A DNA stretch of 44,155 nt from a bacterium. GTDB lineage: Bacteria > Zhuqueibacterota > Zhuqueibacteria > Oceanimicrobiales > Oceanimicrobiaceae. The notes beneath the pieces were generated by a model. The model had not been told where the DNA came from and did no database searches. It saw only the letters and a program-made list of their open reading frames with translations. Every line of letters begins with the position of its first letter. Position 1 is the stretch's first letter. The stretch lies in assembly GCA_037446635.1 (NCBI GenBank), contig JBBIIG010000034.1, forward strand, positions 1-44,155. The letters are read 5' to 3'. Position numbers and translations under genes: made by a program. Below, piece by piece: positions 15,501 to 35,056 of this stretch.

Positions 15501-15585
15501 GCGACACGAGGCCCGTGAAAAGAATGGCGAGAAAAAACATGGCCACAGCCGTAGGCCGGCGGATGGCGAGGGAGATCAGGTTCAT
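12532..15585 (-). CDS. RND efflux permease subunit 2 (AcrB/MdtBC-like), ~1017 aa
   Basis: Start reassigned to MNLISLAIRRPTAVAMFF (ATG at 15585). GMMVDNSIVV, GIVVNNAILLV and RARPIFMTT motifs. Confidence 0.92.
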   Translation of the reverse strand: MNLISLAIRRPTAVAMFFLAILFTGLVSLSRLPLELTPDVSFPKLSVATYWPNTSPETIEALVTSPVEAAANTVAHVKKVDSISEEGRSTVNIEFARSADMDFAALELSEKLSLLKEELPFGVQPPQIQKYVPKEFQSGRFLSYHLTGPLSLPEIRRFALERLRGPLLAVEGVADVQVLGGQDPQLQIELDPTKLRALDLSEQAVAAALRDVNVRASAGRIYQGSTQFDLIIDNPLNRVDEISEMIVSANNGAVVRVRDVARVYSGYSEPRNLTRIDGQPAIVINIEKEAGANTILVADRIFARLAELQENFPPAVRLIKERDQSEPIRRELTNLASRSLFCVAVIFLVLLAFLRNVISPLIILATIFFSVLLTINFFYFAGIGLNLLTLAGLALGFGMMVDNSIVVLDSISRYHERGADVSAAAEEGARDVALPIIASTLTTVAVFIPFLYTTGELRIYYLPFTIAVGLALLASLLVAFTFTPSLAAVVMKRKEARGWKIEGGGLKNSSFGFYPRLLAWALRHRFFIIFLAISLFAGSYYLFEKFVAKGRIWSWGEDTYIVVFINMPTGSEIERTDEIVRTFEASVVGNAKVAKVFTTVAPEFARMDVTFPPEVRRSIFPLILKEQLTELAVQIGGPAVGVYGYGQGFYSGGGAAPQYRLQVLGYNYNEVKRFAEEVGRKLARSPRVHDVDTNSSFGFRQKDDLFEMVLAVDREKLQRAHLSATEVLNAVQNYLRENLDWQRLKIAGKETEYRMKMAGHSDFDLEDLRRVVIQTSSKEPVRLSEVAQIGERKVLAQIVRQEQQYVRGISFEYRGPWKFGDRLVESVVKNTQLPPGYKLERASFFFLQEEEKRQIYGVLMLAVFLVYMIMAGLFESLKQPFIIMLTVPMALIGVFLIFYLTDTNFDRSAYIGVILLGGIVVNNAILLVHHINMLRQRGLSVVDAVIQGSVERARPIFMTTATTVLGLLPLVLFVRPDESIWYSLALATIGGLVSSTLLVLLTMPVAYVTYVGRKSTD

Positions 15586-15649
15586 GGGTACATGGTCTTG
15601 AGGTTTCGCAAAAAAATAGAGCCGTTCAGTAAGAAATGCAAATTTTTTC

Positions 15650-15677
15650 TTGACAAAGTCGGCTTTTTTTTTATGAT
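15650..15677 (+). promoter_or_regulatory. Sigma70-type promoter of cassette 0 with T9 run in spacer
   Basis: TTGACA(15650-15655), 16-nt spacer, TATGAT(15672-15677); downstream RBS AAGGAG and ATG at 15755. Confidence 0.7.
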
Positions 15678-15754
15678 TAAAAAGTTTGTTGTGCCTTCGC
15701 TCTTGCATCCTAATCAAACTAAATCCCAAATCCCAAAAAGAAAGGAGTAGGATT

Positions 15755-15956
15755 ATGCGTAAGAGGCTTGCAGTTCTAGTACTGTTGGTGGCGTGTCTAT
15801 CTCTCACCGTTGTACCTTTTGGCCAAGTCTGACCTTCATGCTTGCTGCTCCAGGAATCAACTCGTTTCATTGGATAAACCGCAGAATGACAAAACAGATG
15901 TTCATCACGGTGAAAAGGTCATCGTTGCTTTTTCGCCGATAGCTTGGGCGTGGTAA
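15755..15956 (+). pseudogene. Disrupted small secreted peptide gene (cassette 0), absent from ORF track
   Basis: Strong RBS; MRKRLAVLVLLVACLSLTVVPFGQV then TGA at 15830. Removing one T from TTTT at 15817-15820 gives ...VVPLAKSDLHACCSRNQL... ending at 15956. Confidence 0.6.
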
Positions 15957-16105
15957 AGTCAAAGTTTGCACGAAGTTCCAAACCGGCTTTGATTTTGCTG
16001 AACGAGGGTGTAGTCGAAAAAACCGCCATTGTTGGGGATCCCGAACAACTAGATGAAGTGCGAGAAATATTGGAGATTTTTAGAAAACGGCCAGAGGAGC
16101 TATGA
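15914..16105 (+). pseudogene. C-terminal remnant of a thioredoxin-fold protein
   Basis: Start-less open frame CFFADSLGVVKSKFARSSKPALILLNEGVVEKTAIVG...RPEEL*. It resembles the ends of the 22145 and 28058 proteins (FYDSLNFV...PTTMLLD), and its TGA overlaps the next ATG (ATGA). Confidence 0.55.
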
Positions 16106-17292
16106 ATACTAATTCGATGTTGCTCTTTTTGTTGCTGGGGAATTTGGGCATTTTTTGTTTGCAATCATGTGCTTCAGAGGAAAATCAGCAAGCAAAGGAA
16201 AGCGTTCCTGCTAACAACAAGGGTAAATGGTTAGAGCAAGGATTGAACGTTCATTTGAAAAAGGTCAAAGAGGTAAGGCTGGACACCGCGGGGGATGGTT
16301 TTATGATTAGTCTAACTGGCTTAGTCCACAGAAATGACGGGTATTACGCGATTGGAGGAACAATTCCAGAGATCATCATTTATGACTCAACTGGCGCTTA
16401 CCTAAAGACGATACGGGTGAATCCTTCTCCTGCGGGACTTTGTTCCTACAGGGATATCGCGATGTCGCCCAATGGGACGATTTTTATCAAAGATATTGAA
16501 GCATCCGAAATTCTTGAAGTGGATTTGAATGGAGACGTACATAAAAGATTCGCAACAAGTGAGAATGATAGCAATCAAATCGCTTTTGGCGGACTTGAAG
16601 TCGTTGAAACTTCAACGCAGACGATGATTTTCTCGACCATATTCCAGTGGCTGGATCCCTCAGAAATATTGACAAAAACCCTAATGGTCGGCCATTTTGA
16701 TCAGAATGGTAAACTAACGCAACGATTCGCGAACCACGACCCGCTTTACGCTGAATACAATCTGTTACAATTCCAGCCATCGACGTTTACGATTTATAAA
16801 GATAGACTGTACTTAATAGAAGAGGCCCTACCGTTCGTAAGAGTTTACTCGCTGAACGGGGAATTAGTCAACAGATTCGGCGAGTACGGGATGCATCAAC
16901 GGCCTCTAAGGAAAATGACTACAAACATTTCTCCTGAAGAGCAATATGCTCGAGGTTTCAACTATACAAGATATGATGCCGTAGAAATCCTTCCAAAGGT
17001 CCTTGGCCATGATGACGCCCTTTTGGCCGTAACGTATCATAACCTTGACCCATCCGAAGAAAATATAAAAAGAAGCGTCGGTCTCCAAAGTGAATCTTAT
17101 TTGATGGTCTATTCCTTGGAAGGAGAATTGTTGGTTAACGATCTGCAGCTCCCGGGCTTCGGCTATCTATTGGATGTTAACGAAGACTCTGATTTAATCA
17201 TTCTCCTAAATTACGAGTCAGAGAACCGCCTGCTTGGCCACTTCCGTTTAGCTGTTGAGGCAGCAGAATCGGCGAACACCTCATCCCTCTAA
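16102..17292 (+). CDS. 6-bladed beta-propeller-type lipoprotein
   Basis: Lipobox LQSC; NHL-like blades (IIIYDSTGAYLKTI, VRVYSLNGELVNRFG, MVYSLEGELL). Confidence 0.75.
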   Translation: MNTNSMLLFLLLGNLGIFCLQSCASEENQQAKESVPANNKGKWLEQGLNVHLKKVKEVRLDTAGDGFMISLTGLVHRNDGYYAIGGTIPEIIIYDSTGAYLKTIRVNPSPAGLCSYRDIAMSPNGTIFIKDIEASEILEVDLNGDVHKRFATSENDSNQIAFGGLEVVETSTQTMIFSTIFQWLDPSEILTKTLMVGHFDQNGKLTQRFANHDPLYAEYNLLQFQPSTFTIYKDRLYLIEEALPFVRVYSLNGELVNRFGEYGMHQRPLRKMTTNISPEEQYARGFNYTRYDAVEILPKVLGHDDALLAVTYHNLDPSEENIKRSVGLQSESYLMVYSLEGELLVNDLQLPGFGYLLDVNEDSDLIILLNYESENRLLGHFRLAVEAAESANTSSL

Positions 17293-17310
17293 GCTATCTC
17301 CCAAATCGCA

Positions 17311-18300
17311 ATGACTATTAGATGCACTGGTTTTTTCTCCATCAGTATTCTCCTTCTGATCGCAAATTGCAGCACTAATAGAACAAACTATCAATTTCTT
17401 AAAATTCGCGAAATTCCGATACAGCTACCGCACGGTCAAGCTGTCTGCCGAATTTTCGACATCGCACAGGATACTTCCGGTCGGTTTTATCTGGCGGATT
17501 TTTCCTGTCATACAATTTGGGTGGTTAACGGAGAGGGGCACTTCATTAGCCGGATCGGATCACAGGGACAGGGACCGGGTGAATTAGGGGGGCCAGTCAG
17601 TATCGCCATAAAAGGAGATACGCTGGCTGTGCTTGAAGACCAGAACGATCGCATATCCTTTTTCGATTTGAAAGGTGAATTTGCTTACTCGTTTCCCCTT
17701 TCCGGAGGGCAATTCAGTGGACTTGAACTAAGCCATGGCGACGAGCTGATTGTTAGCGAATCGCTTGGCCTGCAACATTTCGACTTGTATTCCGTGGCCG
17801 GCGAGAAACTGACCAGTCGCCCTGCCGTTCCAACAACAGCCGTAGTGATGCCCCTTCAAATTGCCGGTGGACAAATCTCGCTTGCACCCGATGGCAACAT
17901 TCTTTTTTCATTTTTAAAAAAGTATGAGATTGTCAAAATGAATTGGCAGGGAGAAATATTGACCAGCTACACGGCATCGCCGCCCGGCTATATCGCACCG
18001 GACCTGAGCAGCCGTGAGGCGTTGATGAAACAATCCGAGTGGGCCGTAGTGGGATTGCCGTTGCAGGTTCAGGACAAAATACTCGTTCAATGGTCGGCTC
18101 GGGATGTCAAAGAAACGGGCGAAACCTCGTGGAAACATTTTGTGGATTTGTTCACGGTAGATGGCAACCCCATCAAATTAGCCATTCCAGCGCCCAACTA
18201 TTTTCTTATGGCAAAAGACGAGCTTCTATACTCGCTGACAGAAGATTCAGTGTATGAATCTAGTAATCCAGCAATAATAGTATATCAATTGGTAGAATAA
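17311..18300 (+). CDS. 6-bladed beta-propeller (NHL-like) lipoprotein
   Basis: Lipobox IANC; GHFISRIGSQGQGPGEL motif; terminal NPAIIVYQL. Confidence 0.85.
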   Translation: MTIRCTGFFSISILLLIANCSTNRTNYQFLKIREIPIQLPHGQAVCRIFDIAQDTSGRFYLADFSCHTIWVVNGEGHFISRIGSQGQGPGELGGPVSIAIKGDTLAVLEDQNDRISFFDLKGEFAYSFPLSGGQFSGLELSHGDELIVSESLGLQHFDLYSVAGEKLTSRPAVPTTAVVMPLQIAGGQISLAPDGNILFSFLKKYEIVKMNWQGEILTSYTASPPGYIAPDLSSREALMKQSEWAVVGLPLQVQDKILVQWSARDVKETGETSWKHFVDLFTVDGNPIKLAIPAPNYFLMAKDELLYSLTEDSVYESSNPAIIVYQLVE

Positions 18301-18322: not shown

Positions 18323-18358
18323 AAACCTCCCGCAGGGTTTGACACCTGCGGGAGGTTT
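18323..18358. terminator. Perfect 14-bp hairpin between convergent genes (bidirectional terminator or REP-like)
   Basis: AAACCTCCCGCAGG-N8-CCTGCGGGAGGTTT. Confidence 0.8.
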
Positions 18359-18363
18359 TTGAT

Positions 18364-21300
18364 CTAACGATCCCCTCTGAGACCTTTCCGAGCAGCCACC
18401 AAACTATACACTACCGGCACCACCACTAACGTCAAAAACGTCGCGGAGAGCAAGCCGCCGCTAATCGCCACCGCCAGCGGACGCTGCAGTTCCCCGCCCG
18501 GCCCGAAGCCCAACGCCAGCGGCAGCAAACCCAGCACGGTGGTGAACGTTGTCATCAAAATCGGGCGCAGCCGTTTTTGGCCCGCTACCAAAATGGCGTC
18601 GTGCACCGAAGCGCCGCGCCGCCGCTCCTGTTTGATGAAATCCACTTTGATCACCGCATCGTTGTCCACAATCCCCACCAGCACCACCACGCCGATCAGC
18701 GACATCACATTGAAACTCTGGCCGGTGACAAACAGCGACAGCACCGCGCCAATAGCCGCCAGCGGAATGGTAGTTATAATAATAAAAGGATGAATAAGAG
18801 ATTCAAACTCCGCCGCCAGAATCATATAAACTAAGGCGGCGGCCAACAGGATGGCCAGAATTAAACTGCGAAACGAGCGCCGCATTTCCTCGCGGGCGCC
18901 GCCAACGGTGATTTGGTAATCATACGGTCGCTCGATACTGGAGATGCTTTGTTCAATATCTCGCACCACCGAACTGTAGCCGCGGTCGCTGACACTGCCA
19001 TAAAGCGCCATCTGCCGTACCTGATTTTCCCGATGAATTTCGGTGGGACCACGAGACGGTTCGGCCCGAATCAATTCTCGCAGGGGAACGGAATGGTTGC
19101 CAAAGCGAATCCGCGCGTTCAGCAAATCGGCCAGCTCATCCCGCGCCGACACTTCGGGGCGCACGACGATATCGATCTTGCGGTCGAAGTCCGTGAACTG
19201 GGTGGCAACTGTTCCCCGCATGGTGTTTTGCACGAAATTCGCAACCAGTCGCGCGGAGAGGCCATAGCGGCCAGCGGCTTCGCGGTCAATGGTGATGCGA
19301 ATTTCCGGTCGCCCTTCTTTGTAGGAGCTGCGAAGGTCAACCAGCCCCGACACCTCACGAACGCTTTCTTCAACTTTCTGGAGCAAACCATTCATCAAGC
19401 CCAGATCGCTGCCGCTGATTTTTATGGCTACATCCGCTTCCACAGCGTCCAAATACTGGCTGAGCAAATTCTCGCTGGCGGCCAGAGTGATTTTCGCAGC
19501 AGGCATGCGCTCAAACTCAGGCCGTAGTGAAGCCATGACTTCATCGCTGCTTTTTGAGCTGCGCGGATTCAGCCGAACCTGCAGCCGCGCCCGATGGAGC
19601 GCCGTCTCCTCCAAAAGCAAGCCGCTTTGGTCTGAAGCCAGCCCAATGTTGGAAAACACCGTCGCCACTTCGGAGCGACGCAATAGCAAGCGCTCCATCT
19701 CGCCCACTACCTGGCTGACGCTTTCCAAACTTGTGCCCGGCGGCATTTCAACTTTGATGACGAATTCTTTTTGATCCACTTTGGGCATGAGCTGCCGGTC
19801 GATGACCAAACTCAAAAGTCCGGAGATAATCAAACTCAAACCCGTAATCAGGATCACCTTCGCGCGATTGCGCAGCGCCCACTTCAGCAGGGTTTCATAT
19901 TTTTGGGAAAACAGGTTAAACATACGATCGAATGTTTGCAGCACCGGGCGCCAAATTCGGCCCAAGATTTTCACCAAGCCCTCCAACCAAAAACGAGCCA
20001 GCGCTCCCAGCCAACCGCCGAGCCATTTCCAGAATTTTATGAATGGACGAATTGTGAATTCCATGATTTTTTGAGATAGATCCGAAAGGCGAGTTTTGCG
20101 GCGCTCGAAAAGACTGGAATAGATGCGAGTTTCTGGCGCGGTTTTGATTTCGTCGCGATCCCTTTTGCGGAAAAAATGCGCGGCCAGCACCGGCAGCAGA
20201 GTCAACGAGACCACCAGCGACGCCAGCAGCGCGAACGTCACCGTCATATATTGATCGCGAAAAAGTTGGCCCGCGAAACCCTGTACATAAATAATCGGAA
20301 AGAAAACCGCGATGGTCGTAAGGGTTGCAGCCGTGATGGGCATGGCCACCTCGCGAGCGCCCGCAATGGCCGCGGAACGGACATCGGCGCCTTCTTCGCG
20401 CAAACGAAAAATGTTCTCCAAAACCACGATGGAGTTATCCACCAGCATGCCCACCCCCAGCGCCAGTCCGCTCAGCGAAATCATATTCAAGCTGATGCCG
20501 CCAAAAAACATCATTATAAATGCGGCGAGAATCGAAATGGGAATGACAAGGCCGATGTTGATGGGGTGACGGACATCGCGCAAAAACAGGAACAGCACCA
20601 CAAACGCCAGTACGGCGCCCACACTCACCGCTTGTTCGACATTGCCGATGGCAGCCGAAATGAACTCCGCCTGATCCGCCGCGACGGCGATGTTCACCTC
20701 CGGATGCTCACGCCGCAACTGCTCCAGCACCGCATGAACGCGCCGAGATACTTCCACCGCATTGGCCTCGGCCTCTTTGGTGATGATCACGCCAATCGCC
20801 TCCTGCCCGTTGAAGCGGGTGATGGACTCGCGCTCGCGAAAGCCGTCCACTACCTTGGCGATATCCTTCAACGTGATCACGGCACCGTTGCCATTATTGG
20901 AGATCACCACGGCTTGCAACTCTTGCGTATCCTGAAACTCGCCAAGAGTGCGCAAGGCATAACGGTAGAGGCCCTTTTTGATCGTGCCGCCGGGCAGGCT
21001 GCGATTGGCGTTGGCGAGCGCTGTTGCCACCTCATCGAGCGAAACGCCGAGCGCGGTGAGTTTGCGGTTGTCGACCTCCACCTGAATTTCCCGCTCCAGA
21101 CCGCCGGTCACCGCCGCCAGCGCTACTCCCTGAATTTGCTCGAGACGGCGTTTGATCACGTTGCGAGTGAATTCTTTCAATGGCACGAGGTCGCCGCCGG
21201 TGACGGCCAGCGACATTACCGGCAGGGCGCGGGGATCGAGGCGTAAAATCGTGGGGCGTTCGGCTTCCTGCGGCAGCGTCCAGCGCAGGTTGTCCAATTT

Positions 21301-21630
21301 CTCCCGCAAGTTGAGCGCGGCGATGTCCATGTTCGTGCCCCACAGAAACTCGAGGGTCACCAGCGACACGCCTTCTTTTGAAACCGACGTCACCCTCCGA
21401 ACACGCGGGACGGTGCTTACCGCTTCCTCGATGGGAACGGTAATTAACCCCTCGACTTCGATGGGCGGGACATTGGGATAGGAGGTCCAGACGGTGAGCC
21501 TGGGATAGGATACATCCGGCAGCAAGTCCACCGGCAGGCGCGTGAGGGACACCACACCTAACATGATCACCGCCAGAAAAAACATGGTGGTGGCGACGGG
21601 CCGGCGCACTGAGATTTCGGCTAAAGACAT
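18364..21630 (-). CDS. RND efflux permease subunit 1, full length (1088 aa)
   Basis: MSLAEISVRRPVATTMFF; GMLVDNSIVVLENI; RLRPILMTT; LQRPLAVAISGGL. Confidence 0.93.
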   Translation of the reverse strand: MSLAEISVRRPVATTMFFLAVIMLGVVSLTRLPVDLLPDVSYPRLTVWTSYPNVPPIEVEGLITVPIEEAVSTVPRVRRVTSVSKEGVSLVTLEFLWGTNMDIAALNLREKLDNLRWTLPQEAERPTILRLDPRALPVMSLAVTGGDLVPLKEFTRNVIKRRLEQIQGVALAAVTGGLEREIQVEVDNRKLTALGVSLDEVATALANANRSLPGGTIKKGLYRYALRTLGEFQDTQELQAVVISNNGNGAVITLKDIAKVVDGFRERESITRFNGQEAIGVIITKEAEANAVEVSRRVHAVLEQLRREHPEVNIAVAADQAEFISAAIGNVEQAVSVGAVLAFVVLFLFLRDVRHPINIGLVIPISILAAFIMMFFGGISLNMISLSGLALGVGMLVDNSIVVLENIFRLREEGADVRSAAIAGAREVAMPITAATLTTIAVFFPIIYVQGFAGQLFRDQYMTVTFALLASLVVSLTLLPVLAAHFFRKRDRDEIKTAPETRIYSSLFERRKTRLSDLSQKIMEFTIRPFIKFWKWLGGWLGALARFWLEGLVKILGRIWRPVLQTFDRMFNLFSQKYETLLKWALRNRAKVILITGLSLIISGLLSLVIDRQLMPKVDQKEFVIKVEMPPGTSLESVSQVVGEMERLLLRRSEVATVFSNIGLASDQSGLLLEETALHRARLQVRLNPRSSKSSDEVMASLRPEFERMPAAKITLAASENLLSQYLDAVEADVAIKISGSDLGLMNGLLQKVEESVREVSGLVDLRSSYKEGRPEIRITIDREAAGRYGLSARLVANFVQNTMRGTVATQFTDFDRKIDIVVRPEVSARDELADLLNARIRFGNHSVPLRELIRAEPSRGPTEIHRENQVRQMALYGSVSDRGYSSVVRDIEQSISSIERPYDYQITVGGAREEMRRSFRSLILAILLAAALVYMILAAEFESLIHPFIIITTIPLAAIGAVLSLFVTGQSFNVMSLIGVVVLVGIVDNDAVIKVDFIKQERRRGASVHDAILVAGQKRLRPILMTTFTTVLGLLPLALGFGPGGELQRPLAVAISGGLLSATFLTLVVVPVVYSLVAARKGLRGDR

Positions 21631-21729
21631 GTTTGAATTTTAGGACTCGTCTCGCAAAAAATAAGAGAAGCGCGGGGAAAAAGCAAAAAATTCTTGACAA
21701 AAGCTGTTTTTTTATTTTTATCTTCAGTG
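21371..21729. repeat. Copy 1 of the 'permease 5' end + divergent promoter' repeat (other copies ~23910-24270 and ~31393-31882)
   Basis: Near-identical to 23910-24270 through ...TTCTTGACAAAAGCTGTTTTTTTATTTTTATCTTCAGTG; the third copy is more diverged. Confidence 0.92.
21694..21724 (+). promoter_or_regulatory. Putative promoter of cassette 1
   Basis: TTGACA(21694), 19-nt T-rich spacer, TATCTT(21719); conserved in three copies. Confidence 0.55.
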
Positions 21730-21814
21730 TACCAACTATTGATCATCCTCGCCAAGTTCAGAACTTTTCGCAGTCCAACAATCAACCAAGCTAATAACCA
21801 AAAAGGAGGCCATC

Positions 21815-22012
21815 ATGGCAAAAAAAACAGCGCTCGTTCTAATATGCTTAGTTGTACTTCTGCTGGGTAGTACCCTCTATTACGTGATCGGCAACAAAAC
21901 CGCCAACTCAATTTTTGTAAAAGACGCACTGGCTACTGCTAGAGATCCTCATACTCATGAGGGCAGACTTACTGTCTGCTTCAATATTGTCGATAAGGCG
22001 TGTGATTCGTAA
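21815..22012 (+). CDS. Small secreted peptide with C-terminal C-x7-C
   Basis: RBS AAGGAGG; hydrophobic leader ending ALA; core TARDPHTHEGRLTVCFNIVDKACDS; followed by a stem-loop at 22025-22060. Confidence 0.75.
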   Translation: MAKKTALVLICLVVLLLGSTLYYVIGNKTANSIFVKDALATARDPHTHEGRLTVCFNIVDKACDS

Positions 22013-22144: not shown

Positions 22145-22834
22145 ATGAAATTTTTTGAGGACAAACTGATGTGGGGTTTGACTGGAATCCTGTTCATAAC
22201 TATGGCGATAACATCACTATTTTGGGGCCGCCAATTGCACCGTCAGCAGAAACTAATAAGCCAACTAAGTACAGAAGTAGATGAACTTCGATCCCTAAAA
22301 GAATCATCTGATTTAGAAGAACGGCTTAGAGGAAAACTTTTGCCATTTAATGAATTGAAAAGCCTGACGGAAGAAAGTTCTCAAAAAGGGTTATTCAGAA
22401 GTAACCTTTATACGCTAGTTTTGGTCGTTTCGCTTTCAAATTGTTCGAGTTGCAGGGACGAAGAGATTCAATTATGGCAAGAGTTCTATAATAGCAGGAC
22501 CAGTACAAAATGCGAAATTGTAGCTGTTTTCTCTGAGTCAGTAATGACTGAACAAGAAAGGACCATAGTAAAAAAATATGTCCAAAGCTTTGACTTGACT
22601 ATGCTATGCTTTCTTGATCAGAACAATAAGATCTTAGAGTTTTTGCATTTGAAACCCGAACAAACACCTGTCGCTCTGCTAATCAATCGATTTGGAAGGA
22701 TTATTCTTGTCCATCAAGCGTTGGCACAAAATCCTGAGAAGACAGTCCGGTTTCAAGAATTAGTGTATCGGCTCTTTGAGGGTTTACAACAACCTGAAAC
22801 TGAAGAAAGTTGCTCCCCCCGTGTCCATCTCTGA
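22145..22834 (+). CDS. Membrane-anchored thioredoxin-fold (TlpA/AhpC-TSA-like) protein, CSSC
   Basis: N-terminal TM helix and coiled coil; LVLVVSLSNCSSC; TPVALLINRFGRI cis-Pro loop. Confidence 0.75.
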   Translation: MKFFEDKLMWGLTGILFITMAITSLFWGRQLHRQQKLISQLSTEVDELRSLKESSDLEERLRGKLLPFNELKSLTEESSQKGLFRSNLYTLVLVVSLSNCSSCRDEEIQLWQEFYNSRTSTKCEIVAVFSESVMTEQERTIVKKYVQSFDLTMLCFLDQNNKILEFLHLKPEQTPVALLINRFGRIILVHQALAQNPEKTVRFQELVYRLFEGLQQPETEESCSPRVHL

Positions 22835-23909
22835 GAACACAGTCGTTTGCATAATAGTAATCGCGTCCGTCTTGGCGCTGGTATCCTGCAAATCGCAGGA
22901 GTCGGAAACCATGACAGATGATTCACCGAGGCTAAGCATCGCCGGGAGCGCCTCTTCTTTTTCTGAGTTGGGCTTTCATGAGGAACTGCCGCTGGTTACA
23001 GAGAACGAGTTCATTGCACGAATCGATTTTCTGAAATTTGCAGGAGACCACATTCTGCTCGGAGATTCTTTTTTCGGGCAACAATTGTTGCTTTTCAACA
23101 CCTCCGGCACATTAAGACACAAAATAGGCAAGCGGGGCCGAGGCCCTGGCGAATATATCAATCCACAGGCCAGCGGGATATTTGATAAAAAAATTTATGT
23201 CGCCAGCTCGGGAACTCAACGTATGGAAGTCTTTGACTTGAATGGCGCCTATTTGCGAAGCTTTTCCTTGGCTGGTCAAATGATCATGTATGATATGCTA
23301 TTCGGCTCATTCGGTCATATTTATATACTGAATCCAACTCGTTATCTAAAATACTCTATAGCGGTCCTTGATACCTCGGGGAAGAAACTCAACGAGATAT
23401 CGGAAATAGACGAGGAATTCAAACATGCGTTTGACACCTTCAATCCACCGAGTAGTTTCGCCATCAATGTGCGAGACGAGTTGTATCAAATATTCATTCA
23501 TCGGTATGAAATACGAGTTTTTGACAAAAAGGGTCAAGCCTTACGAACGATTCGCTGCAGCAGCCCTTTTTACAAAGCGCCTGATTATGAAAAAGCCAAG
23601 ACGGTTAGGGGAATCGATCATGAAAAACGTTTCATGCTCACTTTTACTCACCTGCGCGGCATTTTTCTACTTAAACCAGACCTCATTGCCGTCGTGCTGA
23701 GAAATTGGGAGTCGTTGGACGAATATCGGGAAGTCATTGAATTCTGGGAAGCCAGCGGAAAATTTCTTACGCGTTACAAAGTCGAAGAGGACGAAAAACT
23801 TGTAGCGACACACAATGAATATCTGGAATTTTCCAAAGAAGGCCCGGTTGATGAATAGGGTTTGTATGGAAATCCTAGCTTGATATGGAGAACATTTCCA
23901 AAAAACTAA
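22821..23909 (+). CDS. 6-bladed beta-propeller lipoprotein with probable premature TAG at 23856
   Basis: GTG start at 22821; lipobox LVSC; HKIGKRGRGPGEY. Past the TAG the frame continues GLYGNPSLIWRTFPKN*, matching the NPxI/V tail of sibling propellers. Confidence 0.8.
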
Positions 23910-24171: not shown

Positions 24172-24234
24172 GTTTGAATTTTAGGACTCGTCTCGCAAAA
24201 AATAAGAGAAGCGCGGGGAAAAAGCAAAAAATTC

Positions 24235-24265
24235 TTGACAAAAGCTGTTTTTTTATTTTTATCTT
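24235..24265 (+). promoter_or_regulatory. Putative promoter of cassette 2
   Basis: Identical to 21694-21724. Confidence 0.55.
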
Positions 24266-27510: not shown

Positions 27511-28044
27511 ATGGTTCCATTTTATATCAAAGCCTATTCCCATTCTCTATCAGCGATCATCTTAAGCGGTGTCTTTTTCCTAAGTGGTATTTCAAAAATC
27601 CTCTATTGGGGAGATACCACTATTGCAGTGCGAAATCTTGTTTTCGATAAAGAGATGGCACTTGTAATTTCCGTCGTAATTGTTGTTTTAGAGCTTTCGT
27701 TATCTGTGCTATTGCTTAGACCTAAGTTTTGGAGATTGTGCGGCATCATCAGCGTGAGTATGTTAATTGCTTTCACTGTGGTTGTTTTTTGGGGTAAATC
27801 GCAAGGTCTTATAACTCAATGTCCCTGCTTTGGAAAGCTGTTTGGTGCAAAAATTGGTGGAGCGTTGATTGTGAGAAATTCGATTTTGCTATTATGCGGG
27901 ATTTCCTTGCTTACTCAAAAGGTCTTCTTTCAGGATAGTGATTCGACCATAGATTCACTTTTTAAATCAATGACGGTAGCAAACTTTTCACTGCTTGTAA
28001 TCAATGCCGTCTTGTTTGGAAAATTAGTAGGAACCTTTTTTTAG
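27511..28044 (+). CDS. MauE/DoxX-family redox-associated membrane protein
   Basis: VFFLSGISKI, LELSLSVLLL, CPCFG and IVRNSILL match the MauE pattern (CxCFG...RN). Confidence 0.85.
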   Translation: MVPFYIKAYSHSLSAIILSGVFFLSGISKILYWGDTTIAVRNLVFDKEMALVISVVIVVLELSLSVLLLRPKFWRLCGIISVSMLIAFTVVVFWGKSQGLITQCPCFGKLFGAKIGGALIVRNSILLLCGISLLTQKVFFQDSDSTIDSLFKSMTVANFSLLVINAVLFGKLVGTFF

Positions 28045-28057: not shown

Positions 28058-28663
28058 ATGCTCAAAGATAAGTATAGAAACGTTGCACAAAATTTTCTAT
28101 TCTTTCTTTTGATTGGATTATTAGGCGGTAATTTGTGGCTACTGAAAGGTAAGCAGTCCAACGATAGCAAAAGCAAAAGTGCCCGCTCACCTGCAAAATG
28201 GACTCCGTCTTACATCCAATTCCCGGAGCACCTCACAGATGCAATGACTGGAGACAGCATAAACTTGGATCCTATCATAAATAATCGGATTAAGGTGTTG
28301 ATTCTTTTAAACACTGGCTGCTATCGATGTATTGAAGATCTGCCGAAGTGGGAAGAGTTTATAGGGGAATTTCCGAATCAAGATCAAATACAGTTCGTTT
28401 TTATCGCGCAAGCCCCTACACGTAAATATCTGGAGTATATGATAACACGTCGGGCGCAAATTCATCAGCCGGTATTTTATGATTCACTGAATTTCGTCGG
28501 AAGAACAAATCATATCCACGAGATTCCCACGACTATGTTGCTCGACCAAAAGAACAAGGTTGTCCTGGCCGGATCCCCCATTCTGCATCCAGAGCTGAAA
28601 ACAATGTATCACGACAATATTGAAAATCTTCTGTATAGAAAGGATGGGACTGAAGCCTGGTGA
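28058..28663 (+). CDS. Membrane-anchored TlpA/AhpC-TSA-like redoxin, CYRC
   Basis: KVLILLNTGCYRCIEDLPKWEE; IPTTMLLDQKNKVVLAGSP. Confidence 0.85.
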   Translation: MLKDKYRNVAQNFLFFLLIGLLGGNLWLLKGKQSNDSKSKSARSPAKWTPSYIQFPEHLTDAMTGDSINLDPIINNRIKVLILLNTGCYRCIEDLPKWEEFIGEFPNQDQIQFVFIAQAPTRKYLEYMITRRAQIHQPVFYDSLNFVGRTNHIHEIPTTMLLDQKNKVVLAGSPILHPELKTMYHDNIENLLYRKDGTEAW

Positions 28664-29733
28664 AATTAAAATCCTTGCGTTTGGCGACGGCGATTCTCCT
28701 CGTTTTTTCTAACTGTGCCGATAGAGAAAATGATTTGCCGACGGTTGTAAATGAAAACAGCCCTCTAAGCAGGATATCCCTTGAGTTAATCGATTCGATT
28801 GGTTCCGATGATCCGGCCAATGAAGATTACATATTCGGCATCATCTATAGCCTACAAGTTGATGACAGTGGTAATTTATACGTTTTAGATCGAGCCTTCA
28901 AAAACATCAGAGTCTTTGCTCCCAATGGAAAATTTCTTCGCGGTTATGATTTGCCCAAAGGAAAGGGGCCGGGTGAATTCATGAGGCCAGTATCTATGGC
29001 GTTATCGTGGGATAAAAAGCACATCTATGTTGCCGATGCTGAGCTAAGAAAACTAACCATACTCGACCTGAATTTCAATTTTATTTACTCCTTTGCAGTA
29101 AACAACTACTACTTCGAAGTCTTCGGTGGGCCGAATAACACCGTCATCGTTGTGTTTGACCAACTTTACTTTAAAAAGAAGGATATCATCGTACATATTG
29201 TAACCGAAACAGGCAAAGTGATTGCACAATTTGCAACGCCGCACAGGGATATGGTCAAACTGAGAGATAGGAGACTTCAATTTGTGACATATACTTTTTT
29301 TGTCCCATCAGATTCTCTGCTTTTCCTTGCGCATAGCTATCCCTATGACATAAGTGTATATGAACCGGGTGGCAACCTTAGACATCGCTTTGCGCACAAG
29401 CTGCCATTTTGGGGGGAGGAGATCAGGAAAGGAGAATTTCTTCTTCCGAGACGGACTATAAGCGGCTTGGCTGCCACCAATGATTCATTGCTGCTCGTTT
29501 TTACATTCGACAATCAGACCGAACAATCAAATCTTTATGCGTACGACTACCATGGAAGAAGCCGGGGAGAAATACTGCTTTCCGATTTCAAAATCGGTAG
29601 GCTTCCATTAACTGTAATGTCGATAATTTATGACGATCAAATTCTCTATGTGAAAACTGACGCTCCGTTTCCAAAGATACTTAAGTTCAAAATCTCCCAA
29701 CAACTCCAAATAACTAATCAGGAGGTGAACTAA
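28660..29733 (+). CDS. 6-bladed beta-propeller (NHL-like) lipoprotein
   Basis: Lipobox FSNC; VDDSGNLYVLD...IRVFAPNGKFL...KGKGPGEF; terminal FPKILKFKI. Confidence 0.85.
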   Translation: MKLKSLRLATAILLVFSNCADRENDLPTVVNENSPLSRISLELIDSIGSDDPANEDYIFGIIYSLQVDDSGNLYVLDRAFKNIRVFAPNGKFLRGYDLPKGKGPGEFMRPVSMALSWDKKHIYVADAELRKLTILDLNFNFIYSFAVNNYYFEVFGGPNNTVIVVFDQLYFKKKDIIVHIVTETGKVIAQFATPHRDMVKLRDRRLQFVTYTFFVPSDSLLFLAHSYPYDISVYEPGGNLRHRFAHKLPFWGEEIRKGEFLLPRRTISGLAATNDSLLLVFTFDNQTEQSNLYAYDYHGRSRGEILLSDFKIGRLPLTVMSIIYDDQILYVKTDAPFPKILKFKISQQLQITNQEVN

Positions 29734-30041
29734 TGAAAAAGAAAAAGCTGTTGGTAGGCCTTGGTCTCATTGGTCTATGTTTTGTACTAAGCTTGGTTTG
29801 GGAGTACACCAATCCGGCATTAGCCGCCGTCGATTGTTGTACAAGCTGTACAGATTATTGCTTCTGTGAAAACAGCAACCATGCCTATGCATGTGCGACC
29901 TACCCCTGTGGCACGCCTCCCTGCATTGGGGTCGGTACCAAATGTTGCCTGCCCTGGTACCCTAGTGGCGGTGGTGGTGATGACGGCGGCGAAGGCGACG
30001 ATGAATGTGATGTTTACTTTCCTCCACCCCACTGCGTGTAA
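29733..30041 (+). CDS. Secreted 12-cysteine peptide
   Basis: RBS AGGAGG; signal peptide ending ALA; mature region has 12 Cys and a Gly/Asp linker. Confidence 0.85.
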   Translation: MKKKKLLVGLGLIGLCFVLSLVWEYTNPALAAVDCCTSCTDYCFCENSNHAYACATYPCGTPPCIGVGTKCCLPWYPSGGGGDDGGEGDDECDVYFPPPHCV

Positions 30042-30051: not shown

Positions 30052-30109
30052 CAAAGAGTAACCTCCCATAGATCTCAAGCCTGCGGGAGGTACTCTTTGG
30101 CGGTTTATC
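30052..30109. terminator. Hairpin after the peptide gene, related to the 18323 element
   Basis: CAAAGAGTA-ACCTCCC...CCTGCGGGAGG-TACTCTTTG. Confidence 0.7.
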
Positions 30110-30153
30110 CCGAAAAATGGTAGCTGCAACATTATTCGCTTTATCGAACCTTA

Positions 30154-30190
30154 ATCTATCTGTCTCCTCTGAGACTTTTTCAATCAGCTA
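30154..30190 (-). pseudogene. Scar of an RND permease 1 3' end
   Basis: 28/37 nt identical (hand count) to 18362-18398; reads KSLRGDR* versus KGLRGDR* in the intact gene. Confidence 0.75.
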
Positions 30191-30250
30191 ATAGTCAAGT
30201 AGCATTTAATTGGTAAGAGAAGTAAATGATCACCTTAAAAGAGATTTTCC

Positions 30251-30784
30251 ATGCGCAAAGGACCCGTTGTCAGTTTTAAGGTCAGGCAAGCCAAACCGCT
30301 TGCTCCAATATTAAAAGGTCTATCGAATATCAGTAAATTTCTTTTTGGTAGAATAGATTTTTCTTCGCAAACCAGCTCTGCGATTTTGAATTCACGGGAA
30401 GAAGCTTTCCTTCGTGGAAACGATGCTATCCAGGTAGAACATATACTCTTCTCCCTTCTCAAATTAGGAAAGGGAAACATAGTCAACGTTTTAGAAAACC
30501 TGAACTGCGACATAAATGCCTTACAGCAACAAATTGAATGGCAGATGGACAAGTCTCATAAAAAAGAGAAACACTCCAATTTGCCATTCTCAACTCATGC
30601 TAATAATGCCATTAAATCTGCGTCATCAATTGCAAATGATTTCAAAAGCAAAGAAATTGAACCCGAACATCTACTTCTGGGAATCGTGAAAACGGCAAGT
30701 GGTGAGCTTACATCAATCTTCCGACGATTTAATCTCACGTATGACAATTTGTATAGCGAGCTAAAAAAGATTCAATCCAACTAA
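30251..30784 (+). CDS. Stand-alone Clp N-terminal (double Clp-N) domain protein
   Basis: SREEAFLRGNDAIQVEHILFSLL and LPFS...IEPEHLLLGIV repeats; no AAA+ domain. Confidence 0.8.
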   Translation: MRKGPVVSFKVRQAKPLAPILKGLSNISKFLFGRIDFSSQTSSAILNSREEAFLRGNDAIQVEHILFSLLKLGKGNIVNVLENLNCDINALQQQIEWQMDKSHKKEKHSNLPFSTHANNAIKSASSIANDFKSKEIEPEHLLLGIVKTASGELTSIFRRFNLTYDNLYSELKKIQSN

Positions 30785-30792
30785 GCCCGCAA

Positions 30793-31194
30793 CTATCCAA
30801 AAATCTTCGGATCGGTCGCATTGGCAAGAGCTTCTTCGCGGGAAATGCGGCCTCGTTCGAGGAAGGTTTTGAGCGCCTGATCCATCGTCTGCATGCCGTA
30901 AGCGCCGCCGGTTTGAATGGCGGAAAAAATCTGGTGCGTCTTTTCTTCGCGGATAAGATTGCGCACCGCCGCGGTGGCAATCATAATTTCGTGCGCGGCC
31001 ACGCGACCGTTGCCGTCTTTGGTGGGTAGCAGCCGCTGCGCCACGATGCCCTGTACCGCGTTGGCAAACATGGCGCGAATCTGTCCCTGCTGCTCCGCCG
31101 GGAAAACATCGACGATGCGGTTGACGGTTTCCGCGGCGCTCATGGTGTGCAAAGTGGCGAAGACGAGGTGGCCGGTTTCGGCGGCAGTGAGCGC
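30793..31194 (-). pseudogene. pilT: C-terminal fragment of type IV pilus retraction ATPase PilT
   Basis: ALTAAETGHLVFATLHT, AVRNLIRE and GMQTMDQAL present; Walker A/B region missing; upstream 200 nt is unrelated. Confidence 0.85.
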
Positions 31195-31392
31195 CTTTTT
31201 TTCAACATCTTCAAAGAGTTGTTTCCTTGAAATCTTTAATTCTTGCATGGGCCTGCCTTTGTAGATTTCAAGCAGTTTCTCCCAAATCATTATAAGAAGC
31301 GCCCGGCGGCGCTCCTGTTTGAGTATCTTTGCGTATATCCTCACCGGCCTGGTGACAGCGTGGGTTGCCATCATTGCGATATGGGCCGAACT

Positions 31393-31781
31393 TTAAGATG
31401 GTGGGCCGCTCGGCTTCCGGTGGCAGCGTCCAGCGCAGGTTGTCCAATTTCTCCCGCAAGTTGAGCGCGGCGATGTCCATGTTCGTGCCCCACAGAAACT
31501 CGAGGGTCACCAGCGACACGCCTTCTTTTTGAAACCGACGTCACCCGCCGAACACGCGGGACGGTGCTCACCGCTTCCTCGATGGGAACGGTAATTAACC
31601 CCTCGACTTCGATGGACGGGACATTGGGATAGGAGGTCCAAACGGTGAGCTTGGGATAAGAGACATCCGGCAGCAAGTCCACCGGCAGGCGCCTGAGAGA
31701 CACCACACCTAACATGATCACCGCCAGAAAAAACATGGTGGTGGCTACCGGTCGGCGTACCGAGATTTCAGATAAAGACAT
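31393..31781 (-). pseudogene. 5' fragment (~129 codons) of RND permease 1 with frameshift
   Basis: MSLSEISVRRPVATT...; extra T at 31526-31530 (T5 versus T4 in the intact gene); homology ends at ERPTIL. Confidence 0.92.
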
Positions 31782-31845
31782 ATTGGGATTTCAGGACTGG
31801 TTTTCGCAAAAAATAGGAGAAGTGCGCGAAAAAGCAAAAAAATTC

Positions 31846-31877
31846 TTGACAAAAGCTGTTTTTTTTTTTTTTATCTT
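31846..31877 (+). promoter_or_regulatory. Putative promoter of cassette 4 with T14 tract
   Basis: TTGACA(31846), then AAAGCTG and T14 (31859-31872), with TATCTT at 31872; spacer 20 nt. Confidence 0.55.
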
Positions 31878-31957
31878 CAGTGAATAAACTATTGAAAATT
31901 CTGTCGCCAACTCAGAATTAAAATAAAAACTAAATTCCTTAATGAGGAGAGTCTAAA

Positions 31958-32182
31958 ATGAAAACGTTTAAAATATTAACTTTATTCATTTTCATGTTAT
32001 CATTTATATTGCTGTTATACCCCATTGAGCCTGTCTATGCACAGAATCCTTGCGCTTGTGTATATTGGTGTTGGTCGTGGCCTGACAGGTGTGAAGGTCG
32101 TCATCCTAATTCGTGCTGGATTGGAACATATAATGAATATCAATGTCCCGGTATTTGCTTCAACAATTGTTACCCCGTTTAA
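31958..32182 (+). CDS. Secreted 8-cysteine, Trp/Tyr-rich peptide
   Basis: RBS GAGGAG; signal ending VYA; mature QNPCACVYWCWSWPDRCEGRHPNSCWIGTYNEYQCPGICFNNCYPV; stem-loop at 32199-32240. Confidence 0.85.
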   Translation: MKTFKILTLFIFMLSFILLLYPIEPVYAQNPCACVYWCWSWPDRCEGRHPNSCWIGTYNEYQCPGICFNNCYPV

Positions 32183-32289
32183 CCAGAAAGTTCAACATCG
32201 CCAACGCCATTATGTTATGCTCATAGAAAGTGGCGGGGCGCGTGTAAACATAAAACACGGGTGGTAAGAACAACCAGTACTTTAAACGG

Positions 32290-33999
32290 TTGAGATATAA
32301 TTCTGTGAAGTCAAACAAAGTCTGGATTACAGGTTTTATTCTATCTTTTCTATCAATAATCCTCGTCATTGCCTATAGACTAGGTTGGCTAAATCTCTTC
32401 TCCTATGGGGTACACAACTACAAGAAAGCCAAGCAGCAATTGATTTCAGAGGTCGTTTCCCAAACCTTTCCGGATTTTCAAGTGTACACTGAAAATGGGG
32501 ATTCACTTGGAATTTCTGAGGTTATGGACGAAAAAATAAATTTGATACTTTTTTTGGGACCGGGTTGCATACCGTGCAATAGCCAAGTCATTGAAACAGT
32601 AGCAGAATTTCACAAAGTGAATCATGAACCGAAGATTGTCGCCCTTGTGTACAAAGGAGAGCATGAATTTGTCCACCTACGAACACTGGCTGAAACCAAG
32701 TTCAAAGGCCTTGTAGCAAAATTCAGTTCCACCAATAAGTTTGTAATACCCACTTTTCCTTCAGTTTATCTCTTTGACAAAGAAAGTCGGAAGATTGTTG
32801 ACGTGTTTTTTCCAGATGCTAACCGCATTGAAGATTTTCAAGATTTTCTAAAGAATGTGACTGAGCATACTCACCGAAGTTATCCCCAAAAAGTCACACC
32901 ACAATTTGCTGCTAATCGTGATTATTCAAGAAAGAGAGTCGAAACCATAAACCAGATGTTTTCTAGAAAGAAAGAGCAGCTCACGCTCGTTAAGAGAATA
33001 AAATTGGAGTATAACTCCGAAAGCTTAATTTCGGATGTCAGAGCGTTTGAAATCGGGAAAGATGGCGAAATCTTTATTGGGCACAGTTCCGGACAAAAAG
33101 TCACTATTTTTGGCTCGGAGGGAAATTATATGAAGACCCTTACCGTCGAAGATATTTATGGCCCGGGTAGAACAAACGCAGACTGCTCTCGAATTTTTTC
33201 TGTTGGAAAATCCCAAGTGGGTTTTCTTTTTATTGGATTCGTTACAGATTTGCCCCTTTATGATTTGCAGAAGAGCGAATTCAGTTTTATGCCATTGAAC
33301 AATGTAACAACTGATCTTATTTTTGTTCCGGAGCTAAGAAAGAAAAGGCTTCCCCGTAATAGCCCGGTGCTGGATGCGACTTTCGTTGATGACGACCATG
33401 TTTATCTGCTGAGTTTCCCTCAGCGAGTACTTGGGCAGGAAGGTTCGCCTCAAGTATTTGAGCTAGAAAACAATACCATTGTGAATAGTTTTGCCGCGTT
33501 TCCCAATTTACGGTATCCAAACTTTTCCCAACGCTATGCCCCCCAGCGTGCTCGCATCATTTGGTATGATAACATCTTGTACACCTACTGCCCTCTCGAA
33601 AATCGAATTTACCGATTTGATGCCACAGGGAATCGTCTAGACGATTTGGTTTACCCGATGGGCTTCATCAACCAGCCCGATGGTGATGCGCCAAATGATC
33701 CTCGTGAATGGCACAAATATGAGATTGGAAACGCCGACCTTTTCAATGGCATCTTTCCCACAAAAATTGAGAACAAGGCCTACGTGATTATCGCCCGGCA
33801 GAGGGACAGGTCTTTCTTTCTGGATGTGTTCGATGATAAGGATATGCTTACGGAGTCGATCGAGATTACCGGCTACTTCGAAGAGAATCGCATTGCTGAA
33901 CACAACGGACACTTTTATGGCTATATGTGGCCGGAAGTTGGTGTTCAGCGGTTCGAGGTCACGGGTAACCCTGAAGTTGTTATTTACTCTCTAAAATGA
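32290..33999 (+). CDS. Fusion of TlpA-like redoxin (CIPC) and 6-bladed beta-propeller
   Basis: TM anchor; FPDFQVYTENGDSL...LILFLGPGCIPC...FPSVYLFD; then propeller blades ending GNPEVVIYSLK. Start codon uncertain. Confidence 0.8.
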   Translation: MRYNSVKSNKVWITGFILSFLSIILVIAYRLGWLNLFSYGVHNYKKAKQQLISEVVSQTFPDFQVYTENGDSLGISEVMDEKINLILFLGPGCIPCNSQVIETVAEFHKVNHEPKIVALVYKGEHEFVHLRTLAETKFKGLVAKFSSTNKFVIPTFPSVYLFDKESRKIVDVFFPDANRIEDFQDFLKNVTEHTHRSYPQKVTPQFAANRDYSRKRVETINQMFSRKKEQLTLVKRIKLEYNSESLISDVRAFEIGKDGEIFIGHSSGQKVTIFGSEGNYMKTLTVEDIYGPGRTNADCSRIFSVGKSQVGFLFIGFVTDLPLYDLQKSEFSFMPLNNVTTDLIFVPELRKKRLPRNSPVLDATFVDDDHVYLLSFPQRVLGQEGSPQVFELENNTIVNSFAAFPNLRYPNFSQRYAPQRARIIWYDNILYTYCPLENRIYRFDATGNRLDDLVYPMGFINQPDGDAPNDPREWHKYEIGNADLFNGIFPTKIENKAYVIIARQRDRSFFLDVFDDKDMLTESIEITGYFEENRIAEHNGHFYGYMWPEVGVQRFEVTGNPEVVIYSLK

Positions 34000-35056
34000 A
34001 ATGAATAAGGTCAGCCCCATGTGTCGATCTCCCGAAAACAGCGCGTTTGTACCGTAATGATTTCGCCCGGCCTCGAAACGTCTCGCCGGGATAGGCGGGA
34101 AACGTCACCTCGGCTTTCCGCCCTTCCTCAATTAGACCAATCTCGCTCTCCAGCACTTGCGCTTCCACTTCCATTTGCGACAAATCTACCAACTTAAAGC
34201 ATTCCTGACCCGCGGAAATCTGCTGCCCAGTTTCCACTTGTAAATCTGCCACTACGCCAGAAAACGGCGCGCGGATTTCCGTGTAGCTCGAATTCAACTC
34301 AGCCCGCTGTAGGGCTAACTCGGCGGCGGTTAAACCGGTGCGGTGCGCCAACAGCTCATCGCGTTTCTTTCCCGCCAACACCTGTGCGGTTTCGTACTTG
34401 AGCTTCGCCCGCAAGAATTCATCTTCCGAGACTTGCCCTTGTTCATATTTCTCTCTTATTTCCAAGAATTTGTTCTCGGCGTCCTTCAACTCATCGAGAC
34501 GGACATTTCTTTTATTCCGTTCTTCCTGTTCGCCAACTTCCGCCGTTGATTCCGCCGGCATTGGCTCCACGCTCTTCGCCTTGCGCTCTTCGCTCTCTCC
34601 ACCTCGCTTCTCCTCACGCTGCAACATGCCGAAATCCACTTGCGCTCCCAACAACCTATCTTGCGCTTCCGCCAAAGCCAGGCGATACTCCCGGTCATCC
34701 AACTTGAGCAACAGGTCGCCCTCGCCAACCGATTGCCCCTCGCCAACCGCCAGCTGCACAATAGTCCCGCCAATTTTAGTGGACATGACAATCTCACGCA
34801 GCGCGCGCGTTTGCCCCGTGGCCGAGATGCGCATCACCAAATCACCAATCCGGGCAGGCATCGCCTCTACTGCAACAGCCGTTTCCTGAGCTGTAAAATC
34901 GGCGGCGTCAGGTTCGTTGGTCGAACCCGAGGCCTTACCGCTGAGCCGTGGTTGAAGCTGCCAAAACATTACCAAAGCAATGGCCGCGCTGACAAGGCCG
35001 AAGGTGATTAGTTGCAGGCGCCGGCGGGATGATCCCCAATTATTCTCGCCTCTCAT
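33980..35056 (-). pseudogene. 3'-truncated paralog of the RND adaptor (MFP)
   Basis: Very similar to 25048-26406 until GETFRGR (~34055); lacks the last ~110 aa; tail runs into the convergent propeller gene. Confidence 0.9.

Follow-up and report, generated by a model that had tools for sequence, protein, structure and literature searches.

Several bacterial systems are known in which variable genes are swapped or stacked at conserved sequence, and what follows about them holds for the available parts of the cited articles. The displacement arrays of rhs C-termini were explained by a circular-intermediate model (Jackson et al. 2009, PMC2935791), and effector-immunity modules of Vibrio cholerae’s type VI secretion system (T6SS) were described as displaced sequentially and additively via homology-facilitated illegitimate recombination (HFIR; Kirchberger et al. 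2017, PMC5361080). The minimal mobile elements of Neisseria are variable gene sets which are swapped between conserved flanks (as quoted in PMC3787668 and PMC1797815), and insertion with long target duplication was reported for restriction-modification genes, mostly in competent species (Furuta et al. 2010, PMC2853133). Here we describe a locus at which AT-rich gene cassettes are stacked among the genes of an RND-type exporter and broken copies of these genes. It belongs to a bacterium of the Oceanimicrobiaceae (Zhuqueibacterota; GenBank assembly GCA_037446635.1, a draft genome of 4.64 Mb in 110 contigs, 97% complete and with 0.3% contamination). The window, i.e. the whole stretch of DNA analysed, is the complete contig JBBIIG010000034.1 (44,155 nt; G000:C34 in our numbering of genomes and contigs). 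Among the papers listed by our searches of the open-access literature (subscription journals and bioRxiv supplements lay outside the coverage), none describes this cassette type or reports displacement arrays at RND pumps.

Three exporter genes in the window are intact, all of them on the minus strand: RND2 (12532-15585; RND permease of the AcrB/AcrD/AcrF family, PF00873, E = 2e-195), RND1 (18364-21630; RND permease, PF00873, E = 2.4e-252), which is 32% identical to RND2, and MFP (25048-26406), which encodes a periplasmic adaptor (TIGR01730, E = 9e-60). Interspersed among these genes and three truncated exporter copies are five AT-rich plus-strand cassettes (0 to 4), whose GC content is 0.365-0.447 versus 0.54-0.58 in the exporter sequence. 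Most cassette boundaries are formed by intact neighbour genes; displaced exporter copies are found at three of them, and in addition there is a scar of the RND1 3’-end. The original prediction, made from the letters of the window, had named the boundaries of all five cassettes and had set GC-rich, similar flanks against AT-rich, diverged contents, and both statements agree with the self-comparison of the window, the gene scans, the GC values and the identities. Its generalization that every cassette is bounded by exporter sequence was correct for the five boundaries, but overlooked a piece at 30190-31393 without exporter homology. We consider it rather probable that related strains supplied the cassettes in repeated additive gains, in which homology served as an anchor at one end and the old gene end remained as a broken copy.

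In the self-comparison the RND1 5’-end with its upstream region occurs in three copies which are 89-91% identical (21244-21809, 23909-24346 and 31394-31917), and the 5’-part of MFP in two (25407-26333 and 34063-34989). The first displaced RND1 5’-end (23909-24346, minus strand) comprises codons 1-87 together with the promoter block P2 (89.6% identity), and the second (31394-31917, minus strand) comprises codons 1-129, with one frameshift, together with the promoter block P4 (91.1%). The displaced MFP copy (34063-35056, minus strand; 84.2%) extends to about codon 333 and lacks the 3’ third. In the scar at 30151-30188 (minus strand; repeat family D19), the last 8 codons of RND1 are recognisable with 29 of 38 nt identical, a score reached by none of 1000 shuffles and none of 2416 genome tiles.

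When compared to the intact genes, the exporter fragments and a pilT piece described below show a synonymous divergence (dS) of 0.19-0.51, and the ratio of nonsynonymous to synonymous divergence (dN/dS) is 0.27 and 0.09 for the RND1 copies at 23909 and 31394, respectively, 0.16 for MFP and 0.05 for pilT. Since the differences are mostly silent, the fragments appear to have diverged while functional; as judged from their codons, the broken exporter ends are once-working alleles which were under purifying selection while diverging. The diverged copies contain tracts of complete identity, which are 141, 104, 95 and 104 bp long (p at most 0.0009 by permutation); the 141-bp tract lies in the RND1 copy at 23909 and a 104-bp tract in the MFP copy at 34063. 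This suggests that the copies are mosaics and points to recombination between alleles. The inner breakpoints are variable (RND1 codons 87 and 129, MFP about codon 333), and comparison of 23 junctions revealed no shared breakpoint motif beyond chance. On the other side, each of the three RND1 copies loses homology directly beyond the shared promoter block and shortly before the first gene of the cassette.

The overlooked insert of 1.2 kb lies between the scar and the RND1 copy at 31394. At 30251-31195 it contains a gene with a clpN domain (plus strand), which converges with the last 133 codons of pilT (minus strand), and therefore not every piece of the array is anchored in exporter sequence. 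Positions 30586-31195 are 86% identical to the genome’s own pilT locus (C36:24905-25517). This own locus retains no more than a broken 3’ remnant of the clpN-domain gene, which is longer in the window, suggesting that the window’s clpN-pilT piece came from the pilT locus of a relative.

The promoter-like sequences at the locus are repeated together with the exporter ends. The block P1 (21631-21809), which contains back-to-back promoter-like sites, recurs with each RND1 5’ copy (family D6). It is resembled by the promoter-like region from which RND2 and cassette 0 diverge (15586-15754; repeat families D8 and D12), and this region harbours a site TTGACA-16-TATGAT at 15650-15677 and also a minus-strand site. 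All six exporter copies have a promoter-like site 25-28 nt upstream of their start, and each RND1-linked cassette retains its start codon as well as one copy of the putative promoter block. Between the converging cassette 0 and RND1 there is a terminator-like hairpin of 14 pairs (18323-18358), and a similar sequence closes cassette 3 (about 30061-30092). Since the scan for promoters and terminators as a whole was no better than chance (28 found where 24.1 were expected, and 22 where 23.5 were expected), only repeated and positionally conserved sites were used. Because a promoter-like site precedes each exporter copy, the pump genes are probably transcribed separately and not as one interrupted operon. 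Thus, the idea that the cassettes are inserted antisense inside an operon is misleading, all the more so as the RND1 terminator faces cassette 0.

How could such an array have been built? We propose that donor DNA consisting of a pump gene end, the promoter and a cassette entered the cell, probably by natural transformation, and underwent homologous recombination inside the resident pump gene, while its other end would have been joined to an arbitrary point of the same gene. In favour of such uptake, the genome contains the competence genes comEC and dprA. The joining could proceed by HFIR or by a single crossover of a circle, and our data do not separate HFIR from a circular intermediate. In either case the pump would stay intact, and the previous cassette and its promoter would be moved out of the way. 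Two or more events of this kind, with breaks at 23909 and 31394, and later deletions (cassette 2 and the MFP copy) would explain the map. That exporter ends serve as homology anchors, and that unrelated cassettes are stacked without a local recombinase, had been proposed before; the purifying selection, the identical tracts and the cassettes of relatives (see below) speak in favour of it. In line with the original prediction, none of the 41 open reading frames (ORFs) in the window has a Pfam match to a recombinase. The genome encodes three tyrosine recombinases, all of them outside this contig; a resolvase was not found, and there is no tRNA in the window.

A further line of evidence comes from the genome as a whole, which was screened for local direct repeats of 70 bp or more, with 78% identity or more, within 25 kb. 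The screen yielded 74 repeat pairs, which an automatic classifier assigned to 17 copies of gene 3’-ends, 12 copies of gene 5’-ends, 22 paralogue or internal repeats and 23 without a gene. The 29 gene-end copies, some calls among which are uncertain, sit on 24 genes: two are those of RND1 in the window, and 27 are on 23 other genes. The median GC content between the repeat copies is 0.44 versus 0.525 in the genome. Twenty-six rows picked from the 44 outside the window were analysed for dN/dS, and 23 gave a value, which was 0.40 or less in 21 cases, a few of these rows being paralogues or belonging to an Rhs-like array on contig C71. The exceptions were 0.56 and 4.25, the latter from a wrong-strand ORF that was later reassigned without recomputing the value. 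Genes with displaced ends include hemB, mdh, uvrA, gdhA and genes for a TetR regulator, a DEAD helicase, an M20 peptidase and an ABC permease. At the non-exporter sites scanned, the displaced ends mostly bracket genes of the toxin-antitoxin type, and the cargo includes BrnT, ParE, TumE, DUF433/DUF5615 and DUF2442/DUF4160 genes. In total, about two dozen genes have a displaced end copy, mostly with silent divergence, around small AT-rich genes that often form toxin-antitoxin pairs, with examples at C13:46411-48152 (L144), C8:102188-103673 (L143), C28:4174-6199 (L147) and C3:77867-78812 (L145), and some of the sites are stacked two deep. The end of the ABC permease gene is displaced in 3 of the 40 genomes carrying it (this genome and two others). 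The displacement is therefore no special property of exporter genes, as had been supposed, since the same footprint is found on housekeeping genes in this genome and in relatives. In the Rhs-like array itself (C71:13900-19701, L148), core fragments recur, the ends vary and small low-GC genes lie downstream. It runs off the end of the contig; it was recognised by these sequence features and gave no Rhs Pfam match at E = 1e-5.

Related loci were searched for in 167 genomes of the phylum. The RND1 5’-end was matched in 27 of them (E of 1e-42 or better), once in 26 genomes and three times in the present genome only. A propeller gene, as in the cassettes of the window, lies within 7 kb of the pump at 11 of 26 orthologous loci versus one among 52 paralogous RND loci, all of which are 8 kb or more in length and among which repeated retrievals were merged. 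That 7 of the 26 orthologous loci are shorter than 8 kb, that the propeller hidden Markov model (HMM) was seeded partly from these loci and that kin are not independent weakens this comparison. The propellers are found before MFP, between MFP and RND1 (L124), between RND1 and RND2 (L134) or after the pump. At 7 of the 11 propeller-bearing loci the cassette is on the strand of the pump and at 4 on the opposite one, so the term antisense does not fit most of these loci either. The comparison of orthologous loci called for by the original prediction revealed different cassettes around a single pump and not identical, fixed ones: in these distant relatives the slots between MFP and RND1 and between RND1 and RND2 are filled or empty depending on the genome, and unrelated cysteine-rich signal-peptide genes occur at several of the pump loci. 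In one other genome (L034), peptide-propeller cassettes with MauE-like and AraC genes are stacked divergently from the pump, and a promoter block of 128 bp is repeated there at 5010-5135 and 11795-11921 (85% identity). Displaced RND ends were found at three further loci, namely a RND1 5’-end (93%) at L051, a RND1 3’-end (97%) around 6.7 kb at L052 and the 3’-end of a paralogous RND gene (85%) around a DUF4926/DUF6883 pair at L039. Beside propeller cassettes at the pump of two relatives (L123:78-1448 and L126:2071-3582) there are cysteine-rich proteins of 450-500 aa, which presumably resemble radical SAM/SPASM maturases.

Several observations weigh against additive capture from related strains. 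None of the 26 orthologous loci in the phylum contains a truncated exporter copy, and the sole genome of the same genus, which is 74% complete, lacks a match to RND1 at the cut-off used and thus provides no pre-insertion locus. A displaced copy of the mdh end is absent from all 12 other genomes with a match. In the part of the T6SS study available, HFIR is described as orders of magnitude rarer than ordinary recombination (PMC5361080), and the presence of comEC and dprA in the genome does not prove competence. The identical tracts could result from smoothing by the assembler, and neither spanning reads nor, among the contigs listed from two public runs, a contig across a junction were seen. 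Finally, a tandem pump copy which was functional until recently would also give low dN/dS values, and such a copy could have left the fragment at 31394 and the 3’ scar as its two ends.

The last two points lead to the alternative that MFP and RND1 were duplicated in tandem in place, that the copies worked for long, that their cassettes were exchanged by double crossover in the manner of minimal mobile elements, and that deletions followed recently. The RND1 remains at 31394 and 30151 would then derive from one decayed gene with its own MFP copy at 34063, the low dN/dS values would reflect functional paralogues, and allelic exchange at conserved flanks is common according to the available part of PMC3787668. 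Nevertheless, we regard this scenario as unlikely. Duplication in place is not sufficient on its own, because flanks that are 84-91% alike surround unrelated cargo, and long-lived RND1 paralogues would be unusual, since no other of the 27 genomes with a match has a second RND1 5’-end. Moreover, the third copy at 23909 needs a further event, and the displaced ends of mdh, gdhA and uvrA, with 34-45 codons and low dN/dS, are unlikely to have ever been working paralogues.

A programmed switching of cassettes at exporter sequence, by a site-specific recombinase acting in trans or in the manner of an rhs/cdi-like reservoir, seems improbable to us. It would account for the common outer limit of the three RND1 copies, which lose homology past the same promoter block and before a peptide-type start, and also for the stacking of cassettes behind the repeated block near the pump at L034. 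Against it stand the differing inner breakpoints, which share no motif, the lack of a recombinase or tRNA nearby and the same footprint on unrelated housekeeping genes. Our findings do not argue for a new machinery dedicated to recombination.

Concerning the assembly, the two public runs share only 7% of the words and gave near-identical tables; they probably represent one data set from a related strain at a depth of about 3. The bins that cover cassette 1, cassette 4 and the tail of cassette 3 are without depth, which proves nothing. Variants of the cassette 1 peptide (95%), the cassette 1 thioredoxin-like protein (91%) and the cassette 2 thioredoxin-like protein (90%) share, in another collection, a longest contig of 8362 bp, and these protein records suggest that one independent contig carries both cassettes. 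A chimera of alternative alleles from co-occurring strains, which could have been joined in a draft of 110 contigs through identical tracts of up to 141 bp and which would fit the lack of spanning reads in the related-strain runs, is very improbable, as the inner junctions fall in unique sequence outside repeats, the copies differ by 9-16% and one of them carries a frameshift, contamination is as low as 0.3%, the 8362-bp contig probably links cassettes 1 and 2, and the same footprint is present in other assemblies. The array is real in the assembly.

The cassettes are composed of small signal-peptide proteins, thioredoxin-like proteins with a CxxC motif, one MauE, one AraC regulator and propellers of the DUF5128 type. 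Their sequences have diverged strongly: the propellers are 24-27% identical over longer alignments (37.5% over one stretch of 48 residues), and the single alignable pair of thioredoxin-like proteins is 27% identical over 37 residues. CxxC is present in all four thioredoxin-like proteins.

Cassette 0 starts with an ORF for a signal-peptide-like sequence of 25 aa (15755-15832, plus strand, as are all cassette genes), which is probably a frameshifted peptide gene. It is followed by a candidate propeller-like lipoprotein of 396 aa (16102-17292), which is divergent (E = 1.4e-11 with our own propeller HMM, weak NHL match, no Pfam match), and by a 6-bladed beta-propeller (17311-18300; DUF5128, PF17170, E = 5.9e-09). 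Cassette 1 encodes a signal-peptide protein of 65 aa with three cysteines (21815-22012), a 95%-identical variant of which exists in other assemblies, a membrane-anchored thioredoxin-like protein with the motif CSSC (22145-22834; weak ResA/StoA matches) and a DUF5128 propeller (22776-23858; PF17170, E = 7.2e-17). The propeller is cut short by a TAG stop about 17 codons ahead of its apparent natural end, and this end borders on the junction at 23909. The search with the thioredoxin-like protein of this cassette returned its own cluster only.

Cassette 2 consists of a single fused remnant gene (24355-24897), in which a deletion has joined the signal sequence of a cysteine peptide to a thioredoxin-like gene (CTFC). 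Its protein variants show that this cassette differs among close relatives: an intact thioredoxin-like protein (P0001), a different deletion (P0017) and an intact cysteine peptide (P0018) were found, the latter behind the window’s promoter block in a relative, while the peptide is lost in the window. The thioredoxin-like protein was not found in 166 other genomes of the phylum. With the peptide stub in cassette 0, the early stop in the cassette 1 propeller and this fusion, several cassettes are decaying, as far as can be read from their ORFs.

Cassette 3 encodes an AraC-family regulator (26550-27329; PF12833), MauE with a CPC-FG motif (27511-28044; CPCFG, PF07291, E = 1.8e-16, over cut-off), a thioredoxin-like protein (28058-28663; CYRC, with a profile match), a DUF5128/NHL propeller with a Pfam match (28660-29733) and a signal-peptide protein of 102 aa with 13 cysteines (29733-30041). 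Cassette 4 encodes a signal-peptide protein of 74 aa with eight cysteines (31958-32182) and a protein of 569 aa (32290-33999), which is likely a fusion of a thioredoxin-like domain (CIPC) and a propeller (own propeller HMM, E = 2.9e-08; weak redoxin match). A single-sequence AlphaFold model of the latter had a pLDDT of 40.6 and was not used. Profile scans gave no family match for the 102-aa protein and no convincing one for the 74-aa protein. For both peptides, all Atlas leads were below 0.8, one of them a named NVEALA protein, and there was no match to a toxin family.

What could the function of the cassettes be? The CXC-FG active site of MauE forms disulfides, as stated in the available part of a preprint (bioRxiv 10.64898/2026.03.05.709764), in which propellers and gene neighbourhoods are unmentioned, and the MauE of cassette 3 has the family’s profile match together with CXC followed by FG. 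As in the oxidative folding by MauE/MauD, it lies beside a CxxC thioredoxin-like gene and a candidate for a cysteine-rich exported substrate, whereas no methylamine dehydrogenase genes are among the Pfam matches. Because of the CXC-FG motif of MauE and the CxxC motifs of the four thioredoxin-like proteins, the cassettes are predicted to fold exported cysteine-rich peptides, i.e. to produce Sec-exported, disulfide-locked peptides with MauE oxidising a CxxC thioredoxin-like protein. The gene neighbourhood lets us predict that the propeller is the cognate partner of the peptide, and would make the twin-RND pump a likely shared exporter of the peptides. The pump is like the MdtABC type in that two unlike RND permeases are combined with one adaptor, but RND1 and RND2 score far below the MdtB and MdtC cut-offs; a gene of the TolC type was not recognised in the Pfam scan of the window.

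Based on these considerations, it is tempting to speculate, with considerable doubt, that the locus is a live array of separately expressed modules for polymorphic secreted disulfide-locked peptides, their cognate propellers (as receptors or immunity proteins) and folding helpers around one twin-RND pump, which were captured additively behind the duplicated RND1 promoter block in a lineage that habitually gains genes throughout its genome without an integrase. If this is true, the strain would collect signals or weapons of its neighbours, and the orphan array would be one with permanently active members. Several unrelated peptide-folding-propeller cassettes beside one pump are also a natural panel for the study of cognate specificity. 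The locus would further document, compactly and in a natural setting, how genes are added outside of toxin genes without an integrase, and with about two dozen footprints of measurable silent-site divergence in one uncultured genome, the debate on the mechanism of orphan arrays (one-ended homologous anchoring versus circular intermediates) becomes testable with population data.

Around the array, the window contains further genes. Between rseP and RND2 (11307-12409) there are a 91-aa ORF and an ORF for a DNA methyltransferase that lacks an N-terminus starting with ATG. Since rseP leads into other genes in the five genomes checked, the position of the pump is specific to this lineage, and no empty site was found at the outer flanks. 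Downstream of the array, a lone large subunit of a molybdopterin dehydrogenase is encoded (35166-37529); apparent partner-subunit genes adjoin it in relatives but not here. Two tandem exported paralogues with 35% identity follow (41133-42626, without a Pfam match, and 42880-44154, cut by the contig end), and between them an element of about 70 bp (42639-42713) is repeated on at least nine other contigs with 88-97% identity.

In comparison with the known systems, as far as they are described in the parts of the articles available, the locus is closest to the rhs and T6SS arrays. Like them, it has conserved GC-rich fragments that vary in length, unrelated cargo rich in AT, additive stacking with decay and no integrase, and as in rhs/cdi loci an intact gene is followed by such fragments joined to unrelated low-GC cargo. 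The analogy to rhs/cdi orphan arrays, which had been drawn in the original prediction, thus holds for the layout of fragments and cargo and for the stacking. It does not hold for the cargo itself, which consists of separate opposite-strand ORFs and not of a C-terminal toxin tip fused in frame, nor for its expression, since the RND1-linked cassettes, unlike silent tips, each come with a start codon and their own putative promoter block and are not promoterless. Furthermore, the anchor is the 5’-end of a neighbouring transporter gene with its promoter and not a toxin core, and the fragments are 84-91% and not nearly 100% identical to the intact gene.

Minimal mobile elements likewise consist of variable low-GC gene sets between conserved genes which are exchanged homologously without mobility genes, and no integrase, transposase or att site was found at our locus. 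However, their flanks stay single, while here cassettes were added, the flanks are partly duplicated and the old ends remain, and the position of the slot varies across the phylum. With insertion by long target duplication the locus has in common an insert of less than 20 kb, direct repeats of more than 30 bp spanning the start or stop codon and an intact target gene. It differs from it in the absence of restriction-modification cargo and in repeats of 0.4-0.9 kb, which have diverged at silent sites, and therefore one of the repeat copies probably came from another lineage and not from copying on the spot. Integrons and site-specific islands differ in having a linked tyrosine or serine recombinase and a recurring recombination site, neither of which is present here. 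In summary, the array resembles the known displacement arrays in the way it works but differs from them in its anchor, a transporter gene end, and in its cargo.

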